Of a stretch of DNA of 64,000 nucleotides, positions 44,601 through 54,119 are shown piece after piece; the stretch's first letter is position 1, and each line of letters opens with the position of its first letter. The position numbers and the translations under genes were made by a program. Source of the DNA: an uncultured Gammaproteobacteria bacterium (GTDB lineage Bacteria > Pseudomonadota > Gammaproteobacteria > CAWCPV01); contig CAWCPV010000003.1 of NCBI GenBank assembly GCA_963797555.1, forward strand, positions 1 to 64,000, written 5' to 3'. The notes under the pieces are model-generated. The model made no database searches, was not told the origin of the DNA, and was given only the letters and a program-made list of their open reading frames with translations.

Positions 44601-47441
44601 TCAGAAATCAGAATCCGCCAGGGACACCACCACCCGAAACCCCAGGGCGTAGCCGAAGCTGCCGGGATGATCCCTGCTCCGGTAGGCGCAGCGCGCGACC
44701 CTGCGGTCGCTGCTCCAGGAACCGCCGCGCACCACGCGCGGGCCCTCCGCCTGCGGGTCCTCTCGCCCGTCCTCGGCCGATACGGGTAATCCCGGTAGAG
44801 GCTCGCCGTCCACTCCCAGACGTTGCCGGAGAGGTCGTGGATGCCCTGCGCCGTGGCACCGGAGGGATAGACGCCCACCGGGGTCGTCCGCAGCACGCGC
44901 CCCTCGGCGGTATTGGCCCGCTCCGGACTCCAGCGGCGTCCCCACGGGTAGCGCCCTCCGCGGGGGTAGCGGGCGGCGCGCTCCCAGGCCGCCTCGCTGG
45001 GGAGGGCAACGCCCTGCCCCGGCGCGAGGGGCGGCTGCGCGGCGTCCCCCGCCGCCCGCCACCGGTCCTGGAGCCACAGGCAGTACGCGCGCGCCTCGAA
45101 CCAGGTGACGCCCACCACCGGCTGGCAGGGGTGGTTGAAGGGCGCGTCGTCCCAGTAGGTCGGCCGGTCCGCGGGGCGACTCCCATAGGACTTTTTCATC
45201 TCTCGGGCGAAGTCCTCCTCGTCGAGAGCCAGAGCGTCCTCCCAACGGGCCACGATCTGATGACTCCAGCCCTGCTGCCCAGCCGGCGCGGGTTCTCCTT
45301 CAGCCAGCGCCATAGGTCGATCAGGTCCTCGACCGCCTGGCTCTTCAGCTCGCCGCGCCGCCAGGCCCGAGCCTGGGCGTCGGCCACCAGCGCTCGTCCT
45401 GGTAGCCCCCCGCCTGCCAGAAGCAGGCGTACTCGGCATTGGTGACCGGGTAGCGGCCGATCCAGAAGGCCGGAAGCGGGACCTGGCAAGGGGGGAACTC
45501 GTCGCCAGCCGGCACCTTCGAAAGCCGAAGCCGGAGCAGCTCCCAGAGGCTCGAGCCCACCCGAAAGGCGCCCGCCGGCAGGGGCACGAGGGGCCGCAGC
45601 AGCACCCGCTGCCCGTCCACCGCGAGGGCCTGGAAACGCGGGTCGCCCAGGCTGCCCAGGGCTTCGCCTGCGGCGATGCGGTGGCGCAGGTGGACCTTGC
45701 GGTTCCCCATCGCCGCCAGCAGGTCGTTCTGGACGCCCTGGACCTGGCCCGGGTCCGCCGCCGCGCCGACCTCCGACAAGCAGCGGGCGGCGAGCACCGG
45801 GTTCGCCCGGCGCACCGCCTCGACGAAGGCGCCAGCATCTTCCGCGAGGCCCGCGGCCAGCACCGTCGGCTCCTCCCACCCCGTGGTCGGCGGCCCGGGC
45901 AGCGGCTCGTCCGGCCCCAGCGGGCCCGGATCGGGCATCTCCCGGACAAGCCTGCGCTGGCGCCAGCGGGGGGCGAGGTCCTCGCCTTTGGCGAAGCGCG
46001 AGAGCAGGGCGCGCGCCGAGAAGTACTCCTGGAGCTGGTGGTGGTAGAAACGAAGCTGCTCCTCGGCGCGCGCGTCCCGCTCGCCCTCGCGCCGCGGCTC
46101 CACCTCGGTGTCCAGCAGGGTGGCCGCGAGCCCCAGGCGCTCGACGACCGCCGGGGCAACGTCCACCGGGCCGTCGGCGGTCTCCACCGTCCGGGGGATG
46201 CGCTGCCGCGCCTCTTTCCGCGGCAGCCGCACACCCGCCCCGAAGGGCTGCAGGGTCTCGGCCAGACCGGAGAGCGCCATGGCGAGGGCTTCTTCTCCGG
46301 GCCAGTCGGGGTGGTTGCGGTCGTGCTCCCGGGCGAGCAGCAACCTGACGAAGCCCTTGAACAGGGCGGCGCGGCTCCGCGGCCAGTCCCCGCCTTCCTT
46401 GACCAGGGCCGCCAGCATGGCGAGATACCAGGGATTGCGCACGAGGTCGAGCAGCGGGCTTCCCTCCAGCCTGCCCCAGGCCTCCCCGGCGAGCTCCGAG
46501 GTCAGGTAGCGGGCGAGAAAGGTCTGCACCCGAGGGTCGTCCAGGCGCTCGATCTCTACCTGAGGCAGCCCGAGGGGCTCGCCGTAGTCCCGGCTGCGGC
46601 AGGTGACCACCACCTGGTTGCCCGGCCGCTCGGCGAGCTTTGCGATGAAGCGGCGCCACTCCCCCACCCGCACGCGATAGTCCCGCTCGTCTTCGAAGGG
46701 CATCTCGTTCAGGGCGTCGCAGAGCAGCAGGACACCGCCGCCGTCCACCCGCGCCTGCAGGTCGGCGGTCCCGACCCACTTCCACTGCGCCTCCAGCAGC
46801 TCGTGGGGGGAGCGGTAGCCGCGGTAGTCGGCGAGCGGCAGGAACACCGGGAACGGCCCCTGCCCTTCCTCCAGCCGGCGGCGCGCCGCCTCCAGCGCCA
46901 GACGGTACAGGGTGGTGGTCTTGCCGGCCCCCGGCTCGCCCAGAAGCGCCACGGCGTGGTGGCGGCCGAGCGCCTCGGCCACGTTCTCCAGGCGCACGCG
47001 CTTCACCTGGCGCTGGGGCCCTTCCCCGAGCACCTGCAGCTCCGTGTACTCGGGGGCCAGATCCTCGCTGGTCAGCATCCCGGCCAGCGGCACGAACTGG
47101 GTCGCCCAGCGCCCGTAGCGGGGGCTCACCAGCATCGCGGCCAGGTAGGCCCGTTCGTCCCCCTGTCGGGCGGCGGCCGGCCAGAGGTCGGACGCAGCCT
47201 CCCTGGAAAGGGTCACCTGGGGAGCGCCGGGTGCGCTGACCATCAGGAGCCCCCGCGCGGGGTCCGCCTGGAGGGTCGCCTGGCGATCGGCGAGCATCTC
47301 CCGCAGGACGGAGAGGACTTCGTCGAGCTGCTCCGGGCTGAAGGGGCCAAGACGGAGGTTCAGGTCGCGGCCGATGACCGTGCCGGCCTGCACCGGCCCC
47401 GCGTAGATGGCCCCGCCTCCCGTGTCGATTCAATCCGGCAT
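44601..47441 (-). CDS. DGR target 1: NACHT NTPase + FGE-sulfatase (C-type-lectin fold) domain; frameshifted, in-frame TGA at codon 4
   Basis: GEPGAGKTT, LLCDALNEM, VVTCR, FYHHQLQEY; [39 protein letters not shown]; N-terminal IDTGGGAIYAGPV. Confidence 0.88.
44622..44738 (-). repeat. DGR variable repeat VR1
   Basis: 117-nt match to TR with 14 substitutions, all opposite TR adenines. Confidence 0.95.
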
Positions 47442-47467
47442 GTCTTGGCTCAGGGGTGCACAAGATC

Positions 47468-47663
47468 CCCGGCGCCGTGCCGCTCGGGCGGCAGGACGCC
47501 GGGCGCTGCGCTATTCGGCCGGCCGCGGGGCTGCCGCGGGCGCGACCCGGACCGGGCTGGGCTGGCTCTTCTCCCTGGCACCGTCCCGCATCGCTGGATG
47601 ACGGGATCTGCCGGCCGTGTCAAGCGGGCTGCGCCCGCCATGCCTCCCAGGGAAAACGGCTAT
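47468..47663 (-). ncRNA. Structured spacer downstream of TR (probable part of the DGR RNA)
   Basis: Hairpins at 47468-47503 and 47584-47606 immediately 3' of TR. Confidence 0.55.
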
Positions 47664-47780
47664 GGACACCACCACCCGAAACCCCAGGTTGTTGTTGAAG
47701 TTGTCGGGATGATTCCTGTTCCGGTAGGCGCAGCGCGCGTTCCTGCGGTTGTTGTTCCAGGAACCGCCGCGCACCACGCG
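47664..47780 (-). ncRNA. DGR template repeat (TR)
   Basis: Reads [39 protein letters not shown]; 9 AAC + 1 AAT codons, 25 adenines; directly after avd. Confidence 0.95.
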
Positions 47781-52379: not shown

Positions 52380-52486
52380 GCTTCGCCATCCCCTCCGTGT
52401 CGGTCAGACCAGCCAGTCCGGTCCCCCGGGCCGTCTCGCTATCCGCACACCGCCTCTCGTTGACGCAGGGCGTCTCACGGGAAAAG
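52306..52486. repeat. 181-bp direct repeat, copy 1 (5' region and first codons of target 2)
   Basis: Identical to 53328-53508 except 2 positions. Confidence 0.95.
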
Positions 52487-52541
52487 CGGGCGCGGCGAGG
52501 GCTCTCGGCATCGGCAGGAGCTTTTCCTCGGGGCCGGCCCT

Positions 52542-54119
52542 TCAGGGCTCGTAACTCCCAGGCGGGTCACATAGCGGCGGTCGGGGCGTGCGCCCCGTCT
52601 CTGACCAGGCGCAGGTCCTGGACCAATGTCGAGACCCGGCGCTCTTCCAGCCCCGCCTGTGGATCAGGGCCCGCAGCTCCGCGAGCAGTGCCAGGAATTC
52701 CTGCAGGGTGACGTTCGAAGCAAGCTCCACCCGGTTGCCGTCGCCGGTGACGATGGTGCTCCCGCTCACGCTGCCGCCCACGGCGACGCCCCGGTCGCCG
52801 ATGATGATCCGGTCCCGCCAGTGACCTCTTGCGCGTGGACAGGTCCCAGGAACAGGGCTCCGCCCCCGGTGTCGACGACCTTGGGCTGGTGCGGAAGGTC
52901 CGGACTGCGCCGTGGGGCCTCGGGGGGTGGCACCGTGCGGCCGGCATCTTTGTGCGACTCCGCCGTGAGCCCTTCTCGGGCGCTGCCTTCGCTTCGGGTG
53001 GAGGGGCGCCGAAGGAACTCCCGAACCAGTGCGGCGACGGCGGCGACGAGCACCGCCAGGCCCAGCAGCCAGGCGAGCACACCGGACCAGCCCGACTCGA
53101 CGCAGGGAGAAGATCATTGCAGGGAAACCCGGGCCTTTGCTCGGCTTCCCCGCCCCCGGACTCCGCCTTCTTGGCTGGCGCGGTCGGCCTCGGCTGGCGA
53201 CGGCGCCGGAGCGGAAGCAGGCTTTGCTACCAACGCCGCCTGCGCCAGGGGAAACACGAAGTCTCCCTTGTCCAGACGAGGGTCGACGGATGGTGCCGGA
53301 TCTGGGGATGCTGGGCACCGCGGGTGTAGCACGCCTCTCAGGGACTCCAGCTTGCTCAACTGCTCACGCAGACGGGCGATGACGTCGTCCTTTTCCTCCA
53401 TGCTTCGCCATCCCCTCCGTGTCGGTCAGACCAGCCAGTCCGGTCCCCCGGGCCGTCTCGCGATCCGCACACCGCCTCTCGTTGACGCAGGGCGTCTCAC
53501 GGGAAAAGATTCCGGGCGTCCTCTCGGAGATGTGTTCGGGGACGCTGCGCGAGAGGTAGAACAGCGAGCCGGAGAAGCAGCTATCGAACAGGAACAGGGC
53601 GTGCTTGGCCTCGATGCGCCTGGCATAGTGCGGGAACTCCTCCATGTCGAGGGCGGCGGCGAGAAAGCCATGGGGATCGTCGTCCGGGCGGGGGGCGTCT
53701 ACCGGGACGATGTAGCCCATCTCCGCCCCGTAGGAGAGCTTCCGGGTGTAGCCGTGGCCCGCGAAGTAGAACAGCAGGCGGTCGTCCACGCCGCCCCCGT
53801 GGGCGTTGATGAAGTCCTCGAAGGCCCGGCGCAGCGCCCCGCGATCGGGGTCCTCCACCACCGTGACCCGGAACCCCTGGCGCTCCAGCGCTCCGCGGAC
53901 GCTCTTCACGTCCTCCTTCACACCCGGAAGCTTGGGCCAGTGCTGGTACTCGCTCGCCCCAATCACCAGGGCGTAGCTATTCCGGTAAAGGCCCACCTCC
54001 TGGCCGGCCGGGTTCTTGTAGATGACCACGCCGCGCTCCTCCCCCGAGGCGCCCGAGGCGGCCGGGGACAGCCCGAGGCCCAGGAGCCACGCGGCGACGA
54101 ATACGCGTGTGCCTCTCAT
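52542..54119 (-). pseudogene. Signal peptide-caspase(C14)-TM-amyloid-like-motif protein, interrupted by the 181-bp copy
   Basis: YALVIG, YFAGHG, FDSCFSG; resumes QHPQ..DPRLDKGDFVF; TM VLAWLLGLAVLVAAVAALV; tail VVDTGGGALFLGPVHA..VGGSVSGSTIVTGDGN. Confidence 0.75.
53328..53508. repeat. 181-bp direct repeat, copy 2, inside the caspase gene
   Basis: Offset 1022 bp from copy 1. Confidence 0.95.

Follow-up and report, generated by a model that had tools for sequence, protein, structure and literature searches.

The window examined here, a 64,000 nt stretch of contig C3 (CAWCPV010000003.1, assembly GCA_963797555.1) from an uncultured gammaproteobacterium, holds a cluster of conflict systems of the STAND/NLR type (signal transduction ATPases with numerous domains; nucleotide-binding oligomerization domain-like receptors). 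Two caspase/sensor systems in this cluster, whose genes are all on the minus strand, are best regarded as a new transmembrane variant of adaptor- or amyloid-type NLR-effector coupling, with a predicted topology and a putative amyloid behaviour. The effector of both pairs appears to be an exported C14 caspase anchored by a single pass through the membrane, with a cytoplasmic tail that bears a short G-rich motif of the beta type. In pair 1, caspase 1 would be coupled to two NACHT-CLec sensors (CLec, C-type lectin) that are diversified by a diversity-generating retroelement (DGR). In pair 2, caspase 2 would be coupled through a different motif to a STAND NTPase that is not a DGR target. The matching motifs on caspase tails and adjoining sensors suggest signalling across the membrane. 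As an explanation of the whole locus, paired exported C14 caspases with motif-bearing tails, coupled inside-out to the downstream sensor NTPases, has about an even chance of being correct.

Pair 2 is the better specimen and rescues the architecture. Its two genes are as follows.

61195..62539, minus strand: caspase 2, a paralogue of caspase 1, with a signal peptide-like N-terminus, a complete C14 domain, a linker, a transmembrane (TM) helix and a tail
59977..61181, minus strand: STAND NTPase of pair 2, AAA_16/NACHT-like, with an N-terminal motif at 61038-61145

Caspase 2 was found by a paralogue search of the genome itself, with 54% identity over residues 20-195 of caspase 1. It has one frame break near 61775 and aligns with its homologues through the C-lobe to the ..RGDFVF end. 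The C-lobe, a linker of ~75 aa, the TM helix and the tail are together in one open frame (61770..61195). The TM segment is a 19-residue hydrophobic helix (61390-61446) that is followed by RSWLRRRRE, and the 65 aa tail has its motif at 61228-61344 and no helical domain. The NTPase starts 10 nt past the caspase 2 stop, carries the motif at residues 13-48, and has a short helical-repeat C-terminus after one frame break.

The tail of caspase 2 and the N-terminus of the NTPase are 70% identical over 37 aligned positions, including an identical block of 14 residues. In a search against all 76,095 six-frame open reading frames (ORFs) of the genome, which was used for the tails of both pairs, the NTPase N-terminus is the best non-self match of this tail (E=3e-15) and the tail of pair 1 is the next. 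This match greatly exceeds what chance would give, and it is confined to the tail and the N-terminus of adjoining genes, and the motif is unlike the DTGGG-type motif of pair 1. A frame-filtered scan of the genome for shared 6-mer peptides found pair 2 and no other short tail/N-terminus pair. A scan for exact duplicated 7-mers was dropped, as it was swamped by CRISPR-like arrays and paralogues. An adjoining co-oriented gene with the sensor's motif in its C-terminal region is thus present in pair 2, and weakly so in pair 1, where the gene is broken. The first-pass annotation of this DNA had reasoned that effector and sensor motifs should vary together, and on a small scale they do: the two paralogous effectors each match their own sensor, through different motifs.

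Co-folding of the two pair-2 motifs (2+2 copies) gave a score of 0.34 against 0.00 for the best control, which is weak support. The job is unlike the calibration set. Of 78 solved complexes, 51 reached the co-folding mark, as did 2 of 108 mismatched pairs; at values of 0.60 or below it was reached by five of the 78 solved complexes, and all four passing mismatches (of 180) are also there. Contacts in the pair-2 runs are at least 88% concordant, and the partner pLDDT (predicted local distance difference test) is at least 51.

On hydrophobicity and charge heuristics, both window caspases are predicted to have the caspase domain outside, one TM helix and the C-terminal tail inside. The tail is predicted to be cytoplasmic because the N-terminus resembles a signal peptide, there is a single TM helix, and an arginine-rich stretch follows that helix, in keeping with the positive-inside rule. 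Judged by their N-termini and homologues, the window caspases are members of a putatively exported C14 family that is distinct from cytoplasmic caspases bearing the motif-plus-helical module described below. A signal peptide-like hydrophobic N-terminus was scored in 106 of 118 homologues versus 0 of 13 cytoplasmic module-bearing caspases; on the same scale, the N-terminal hydrophobic 12-mers of caspases 1 and 2 score 2.36 and 2.60. The homologues carry PEGA, DUF1566 or FGE (formylglycine-generating enzyme) partner domains.

The proposed mechanism would start with ligand binding by a sensor, which would lead to oligomerization of its NTPase. The N-terminal motifs, clustered in this way, would recruit or template the matching motifs of the caspase tails. 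The periplasmic protease domains would thereby be brought together and activated by proximity, such that the signal would pass from inside to outside.

In pair 1 the gene order, 5′ to 3′, is caspase 1, the TM helix and tail, NACHT2-CLec, the reverse transcriptase, the Avd-like gene, the template repeat and NACHT1-CLec. The sensors and the DGR cassette comprise the following features.

47654-47783, minus strand: template repeat (TR) of the DGR, from a repeat search and TR/VR comparison
44612-44741, minus strand: variable repeat 1 (VR1), within NACHT1-CLec, from a repeat search
49478-49607, minus strand: variable repeat 2 (VR2), within NACHT2-CLec, from a repeat search
48301..49377, minus strand: DGR reverse transcriptase, from three-frame translation, a coding-frame hidden Markov model (HMM) and PADLOC
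47808..48155, minus strand: Avd-like accessory gene, intact, from translation
44612..47441, minus strand: NACHT1-CLec, DGR target 1, with ATG at 47441, motif at 47364-47429, a NACHT domain and a frame-broken FGE/CLec region
49386..52379, minus strand: NACHT2-CLec, DGR target 2, with a coiled-coil N-terminus, motif at 52146-52250, a NACHT domain and an FGE/CLec region

This is a genuine DGR, because a reverse transcriptase and an accessory gene accompany a TR and VRs that differ at TR adenines. Within the repeat core the mismatches fall at TR adenines (e.g. AAC AAC AAC in the TR appears as AGC AGC GAC). The reverse transcriptase is spread over three frames by two frame breaks and has a PADLOC match at 48937-49377 (E=1.5e-21). 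The gene at 47808..48155 is presumably Avd, a name suggested by its position. Pfam shows NACHT and FGE-sulfatase/CLec domains in both targets and no effector domain of their own, and the CLec part of NACHT2 has three frame breaks. The first-pass annotation was sound in its description of DGR-hypermutated NACHT sensors; the cassette has a reverse transcriptase, Avd, TR, two NACHT-CLec targets and adenine-specific VR changes. The annotation also placed the same motif at the start of both targets; the motif is present on both, at residues 44-78 of NACHT2 and 5-26 of NACHT1, and the NACHT1 copy is behind an in-frame TGA.

A second DGR with a reverse transcriptase lies elsewhere in the genome (G000:C14:4500-11600, minus strand; L014), with a TR that reads GGSWNNEPRNVRSANRNRNTPDNRNNNLGFR. 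Its two targets are exported caspases with the order signal peptide, C14, CLec, the last being a directly fused FGE/CLec domain that bears the VR; both have frame breaks just past the signal peptide.

The effector region of pair 1 consists of the following parts.

53517..54119, minus strand: N-terminal part of caspase 1, with ATG at 54119, signal peptide-like residues ~1-24 and the C14 N-lobe, from the ORF, Pfam, PADLOC and alignment
53328..53508, minus strand: copy B of repeat R, 181 nt inside caspase 1, with stops in all three frames
53117..53327, minus strand: remnant of the caspase 1 C-lobe (..DKGDFVF) and linker, with at least two frame changes and a stop at 53114-53116, from three-frame translation
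53024..53089, minus strand: TM helix 1, with 22 hydrophobic residues and then REFLRR, from the translation of 52769-53113 with coordinates set by hand
52728..52879, minus strand: motif of the pair-1 tail, with a DTGGG..G.V.. block at 52817-52879, a 1-nt break at 52816, and DRIIIGDRGVAVGG..TGDGNRV at 52728-52814
52487..52727, minus strand: helical C-terminal part of the tail, LQEFLALLAELRALIH, a break at ~52662, then QAGLEE.., the true stop being uncertain
52306..52486, minus strand: copy A of repeat R, which runs from the native end of the tail gene through the intergenic region into the first 25 codons of NACHT2

The caspase 1 ORF (54119..53364) has a hydrophobic N-terminus, His122 (..AGHG..) and Cys181 (..DSCFSG..), a Peptidase_C14 match and a PADLOC caspase match. 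The Pfam match covers only profile positions 3-134 of 233, and homology to relatives stops at ..HISERT. Thus the His/Cys dyad is present and the complete caspase fold is not, the C-lobe being replaced by repeat R. The two copies of R are 99% identical and are the only two in the genome. R was rejected as a mobile element on this count. The first-pass annotation had described a signal peptide, a C14 domain with an HG/SC dyad, a TM helix and a motif. Each has its counterpart in the sequence, the signal peptide as a predicted one; they do not form one ORF, and the C-lobe is incomplete. Two further ORFs are co-oriented with caspase 1 and directly upstream of it: a 267 aa ORF with multiple hydrophobic segments and no Pfam match (54289-55092, minus strand) and a 199 aa lipoprotein-like coiled-coil ORF (55247-55846, minus strand).

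The motif of pair 1 is not at the C-terminus, as a putative helical module follows it. The first-pass annotation took it for a free-standing amyloid motif; it is probably the front of a conserved module, a G-rich part joined to a TCAD2-like helical domain, which is common among cytoplasmic caspases and CHAT proteases. The helical part of the tail (..LLAELRALIH/QAGLEE..) resembles the module of loci L030, L013 and L022, a likeness seen by eye only and in frame-broken sequence. A Pfam scan of the tail pieces, the TM piece and a 171 aa motif protein encoded elsewhere in the genome gave no match. BLASTP comparison of the 171 aa protein with the pair-1 tail was not significant, nor was that of the pair-2 C-terminal part with the pair-1 TM piece. 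At the nucleotide level a repeat search recovers the motif copies as a 46-nt family (47386-47431, 52204-52249 and 52833-52878). Across the genome, the DTGGG-type motif is found in tail 1, NACHT1, NACHT2, two more NACHT-CLec remnants and the 171 aa protein on contig C2. The last three lie together (G000:C2:189000-198000; L013): the remnants have DTGGG/ETGGG-type N-terminal motifs, the 171 aa protein has a G-rich motif and a helical domain, and an 843 aa ORF on the opposite strand has DUF4062 as its only notable Pfam match.

Related loci were collected by alignment of the four NACHT proteins of this genome. The 80 loci fetched are mainly from Chloroflexota, Proteobacteria, Thermoanaerobaculia and cyanobacteria, and 77 are comparable at the sensor N-terminus. 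In 13 of the 77, that N-terminus matches a neighbouring non-NLR ORF (E<=1e-3 against a per-locus database, a generous threshold), and the matched motifs vary from locus to locus. Some partners are small proteins that start with a hydrophobic helix and end with the motif, which on our reading look like Bell-type proteins. There is also an alpha/beta hydrolase (L019), and small proteins in which a G-rich motif precedes Pfam TCAD2 (L015, L078). In a Thermoflexus metagenome-assembled genome (MAG; L022) the partner is a C14 caspase with a helical domain and no TM helix, and two motifs in its C-terminal region match the next gene, a NACHT-CLec. Accordingly, the core idea of the first-pass annotation, a motif common to a sensor N-terminus and the tail of an exported caspase, is partly supported, by pair 2, by the 13 of 77 loci and by the published systems of bacterial amyloid signalling sequences (BASS) and Bab/Agp. 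A membrane-embedded partner of another kind is found on a Streptomyces sulfonofaciens contig (L076, 5535-6287), where a NACHT partner has two hydrophobic helices and then two motif pseudo-repeats that match the sensor N-terminus.

The same wiring might instead use an ordinary homotypic adaptor, the motif being the G-rich front of a TCAD2-type module that forms a defined oligomeric beta-assembly, as EAD and Death-like adaptors do, with no amyloid template. Such a plain adaptor is a serious rival and may be correct, if on balance it is doubtful. A conserved helical domain comes after the motif in most partners. With a profile of the motif-plus-helical module, 891 representatives are recovered at E<=0.001 and 169 at E<=1e-10, the module alignment matches TCAD2 proteins with an hhalign probability of 98.3%, and Pfam TCAD2 is found in L015, L078 and P0273. 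All 10 long module members scanned are C14 or CHAT proteases, with the protease domain starting at residues 6-87. In addition, the motifs of both pairs have a high content of G, D, V and I, not of N and Q. Published work, taken here and below from titles, abstracts and passages of the papers, includes a proposal that EAD8 recruits protease effectors to DGR-diversified STAND sensors (Dore et al., 2024). However, the pair-2 tail has no helical domain and the sensors carry the short motif only; short matched terminal motifs on effector and NLR are, in those passages, the published BASS signature; and the Bell-like partners in related loci fit the amyloid paradigm. The fullest form of inside-out coupling, in which prion-like templating by cytoplasmic NLR-type sensors, some of them DGR-hypermutated, on the tail of a TM protein would activate a periplasmic caspase, and motif specificity would insulate parallel pairs in one cell, is unlikely, if not strongly so.

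Several observations weigh against inside-out coupling. In pair 1, ~65 codons of the caspase C-lobe have been lost where copy B of R sits, as shown by alignment with homologues. Downstream of this are frame breaks near 53300, between ~53240 and 53120, and at 53095, 52816 and 52662, which put the C-lobe end, TM helix, motif and helical tail in different frames. On the sensor side, NACHT1 starts ATG-CCG-GAT-TGA, with the in-frame TGA (47430-47432) directly before the motif. In place of the single caspase ORF with a 1-nt frameshift that the first-pass annotation had read, there is a 181-nt replacement with at least four more frame breaks. The pair-1 effector is inactivated in this assembly by the replacement and the breaks, and this strain probably lacks a working pair-1 system. 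The genome assembly is 84.6% complete in 20 contigs. A coding-frame HMM of our own, uncalibrated and run without a control genome, gives a rough figure of 782 frameshift-like sites in 5.35 Mb (~15 per 100 kb), and by the same uncalibrated model the 40-60 kb bin of the window, with nine such sites, is at the 99th percentile of 20-kb bins. As a yardstick of assembly quality, the rpoB and rpoC families were searched for in this 84.6%-complete genome and neither was found. The assembly may carry many indel errors, and its reading frames need care. Some of the breaks coincide with short C/G runs, and one is an insertion outside any homopolymer. The single-base breaks are either sequencing error or decay, alternatives that are inseparable here; the 181-nt replacement is neither.

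Relatives' DNA bears on these breaks. It consists of contigs from four public runs (X1-X4), each run covering 0.12-0.15 of the stretch and none spanning the whole. A 151-nt X4 contig, identical at all positions, covers 53419-53569. Because this contig crosses the junction between caspase and R, that junction probably exists in the DNA and did not arise in assembly, although X4 may be related to the source sample and the contig does not reach the other junction (53328). An assembly artefact was accordingly set aside as the less likely origin of R. Contigs of X1-X3 show one additional nucleotide at 52816/52817, a net loss of one at 53093-53099 and, in X3, one additional nucleotide at 52662. These are the changes that reopen the frame at the three sites, and the first restores ..TGRDRIII in the tail. 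The relatives probably have a more intact gene, because their contigs lack at least three of the breaks. An X2 contig that is 88% identical tracks caspase 1 to 53517 and then has 129 unlike letters; we take it to be from a relative without the R insertion, but it could also be from a paralogue.

The architecture of signal peptide, caspase, TM helix and motif was also sought elsewhere, with the outcome again unfavourable. None of the 119 closest database homologues listed has a TM helix and then an NLR-type tail. The full architecture is absent from 78 metagenome caspase ORFs and from the 16 other matches that cover the pair-2 tail, and the TM helix and motif of pair 1, used together as a query, matched nothing elsewhere. 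No caspase with a signal peptide and a TM helix ahead of the motif is found among 45 long module-bearing proteins. The word-based protein searches among these screens can miss distant relatives, and most contigs are short. Thus the architecture rests on one noisy genome and on short contigs of close relatives. Of the kind of protein that the first-pass annotation had proposed to look for, namely one with signal peptide, C14 domain and TM helix whose tail matches the next NLR, pair 2 is in the window and the screens just described gave none elsewhere. The general importance of the locus would be small if the architecture is confined to one lineage or if the genes are decaying.

The motif statistics of pair 1 raise the question of whether there is functional coupling at all. 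Likeness could have come from shared ancestry, gene conversion or low-complexity G-rich sequence in a decaying cluster, with the caspases being merely anchored exported proteases. The pair-1 matches are marginal: in the genome-wide search the tail motif finds NACHT1 at E=0.026, with pair-1 matches ranging from E=0.026 to 2.2, and when the tail is read through with X at the break, NACHT2 is found at E=0.081 and NACHT1 at E=0.2. Local duplication or conversion has demonstrably happened, as the 181-nt repeat shows; related G-rich N-termini are found on five STAND/CHAT genes within 20 kb; and the 40-60 kb bin is the frameshift-rich one noted above. Of the seven best non-self matches of the read-through tail, six come from the N-termini or tails of conflict-system proteins, and five of these six are within 20 kb of each other. 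Just past its motif, tail 1 has a stretch homologous to tail 2 (59% identity over 29 aa, pairwise E=8e-8). Set against an absence of coupling are the pair-2 match, the two pairs with different motifs, the locus-specific pairs in 13 of 77 loci from other phyla, and the Thermoflexus MAG caspase with matching motifs beside a NACHT-CLec. This explanation is very unlikely.

Least probable, and highly improbable, is an outside-in arrangement in which the exported caspase-TM-tail protein would be the sensor, clustering extracytoplasmically so that its tail nucleates the motif on cytoplasmic NTPases: the caspase-CLec fusions of the second DGR do place extracytoplasmic sensing modules in the same caspase family, and the pair-2 NTPase ends in no more than its short helical repeat, but the NACHT proteins hold the hypervariable CLec sensors and lack an effector domain, and in the passages available the characterized systems have the NLR as the sensor that templates the effector.

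Inside-out coupling by exported caspases can be compared with four kinds of known system. With BASS pairs, as described in the passages available, the window pairs share a ~25 aa motif common to the effector and the N-terminus of an adjoining co-oriented NACHT/STAND protein, a very short intergenic distance (the 10 nt of pair 2) and motif families that differ by locus. As in BASS-type sensors, the N-terminal motif sits on an NTPase of NACHT/NB-ARC type: Pfam finds NACHT in both DGR targets and an AAA_16/NACHT-like domain in the pair-2 NTPase. Unlike those pairs, the window effector is a putatively exported C14 caspase with a TM helix between caspase and motif, and the pair-1 motif precedes a putative helical module. 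The original BASS screen looked for Bell-domain effectors and the window effector is a Peptidase_C14, although effectors beyond Bell have already been reported, in the passages available, among them alpha/beta hydrolase, TIR2, CHAT as well as guanylate cyclase (Dyrka et al., 2020; Bab/Agp BASS11 preprint, 2024). For Bab/Agp, experiments in Escherichia coli have shown amyloid signalling, according to passages of that preprint (BASS11 preprint, 2024).

The DGR STAND-CLec antigen sensors (Dore et al., 2024, clade 5D; Kaur et al., 2020; 2021), as far as the passages describe them, resemble pair 1 in having two targets in which NACHT is central and a CLec/FGE domain with the VR is C-terminal, N-terminal extensions without a named domain, and a nearby peptidase effector thought to be recruited via a shared adaptor. 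Two STAND-CLec targets per DGR is a pattern published in the passages of Dore et al. (2024). These systems differ in that the window adaptor is a short G-rich motif and not a globular EAD, and in that the window effector is predicted to be extracytoplasmic. Cytoplasmic caspase and CHAT proteins with a TCAD2 or TCAD2-like module (PF19971) share this type of motif (..TGGGAYIGG.V..GDFVGRD..) and have a helical domain after it. In contrast to the window effectors, their caspases start at residues 6-9 and have no signal peptide, and the 45 long proteins noted above have no TM helix before the motif. Exported C14 caspases with PEGA, DUF1566, FGE or other extracytoplasmic C-terminal domains are the closest relatives by caspase domain (48-71% identity) and share the signal peptide-like N-terminus and the ..RGDFVF end; they differ in the TM helix and NLR-type tail, which the 119 listed lack.

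DGR NACHT-CLec sensors, matched NLR/effector motifs and caspase/CHAT proteins with a G-rich motif are therefore known or evident in databases. The exported caspase family together with a TM helix that would place the motif across the membrane appears to be a new combination. Regarding the novelty claimed by the first-pass annotation, the form with signal peptide and TM helix appears new, and a caspase with a matching motif beside a DGR-diversified NACHT-CLec is not unique, as the Thermoflexus MAG shows. In titles, abstracts and passages, no literature was found that describes a caspase bearing such a motif and exported or anchored in the membrane, and supplements may show related architectures. 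In the text of Kaur et al. (2020), ‘amyloid’, ‘signal peptide’ and ‘TCAD2’ have no occurrences, and PMC12261475 mentions none of the terms caspase, CHAT, transmembrane and signal peptide.

In the literature examined, which was available in part, both partners of the known NLR/effector adaptor and amyloid systems act from the cytoplasm. If inside-out coupling is correct, motif templating could relay a signal across a membrane, and bacterial caspases could have periplasmic or cell-envelope substrates. The different motifs of the two pairs in one genome would provide a natural specificity experiment, and the locus ties DGR-diversified sensors to a concrete effector.

The remainder of the window has other conflict genes. 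The window begins at the end of contig C3, and G+C is 54-60% across positions 1-20000 and 63-75% across 20001-64000. An nSTAND1-WD40 gene, probably a truncated conflict gene, is on the plus strand (42257-44479). It has the N-terminal motif GNTIITGDGNVV, is spread over three frames and ends after one WD40 repeat, ~130 nt from the end of VR1. Between the two pairs (55900-59603, minus strand) is a gene for a CHAT protease with the N-terminal motif GNVIITGDDNRVYV, followed by very similar TPR-like repeats (AAQDPSNAGWQRDLSVSY) in shifting frames. Elsewhere in the genome, the peptide-repeat scan revealed dense repeat units with variable spacers, CRISPR-like in appearance, at G000:C2:233200-234600 and G000:C20:51600-53800.

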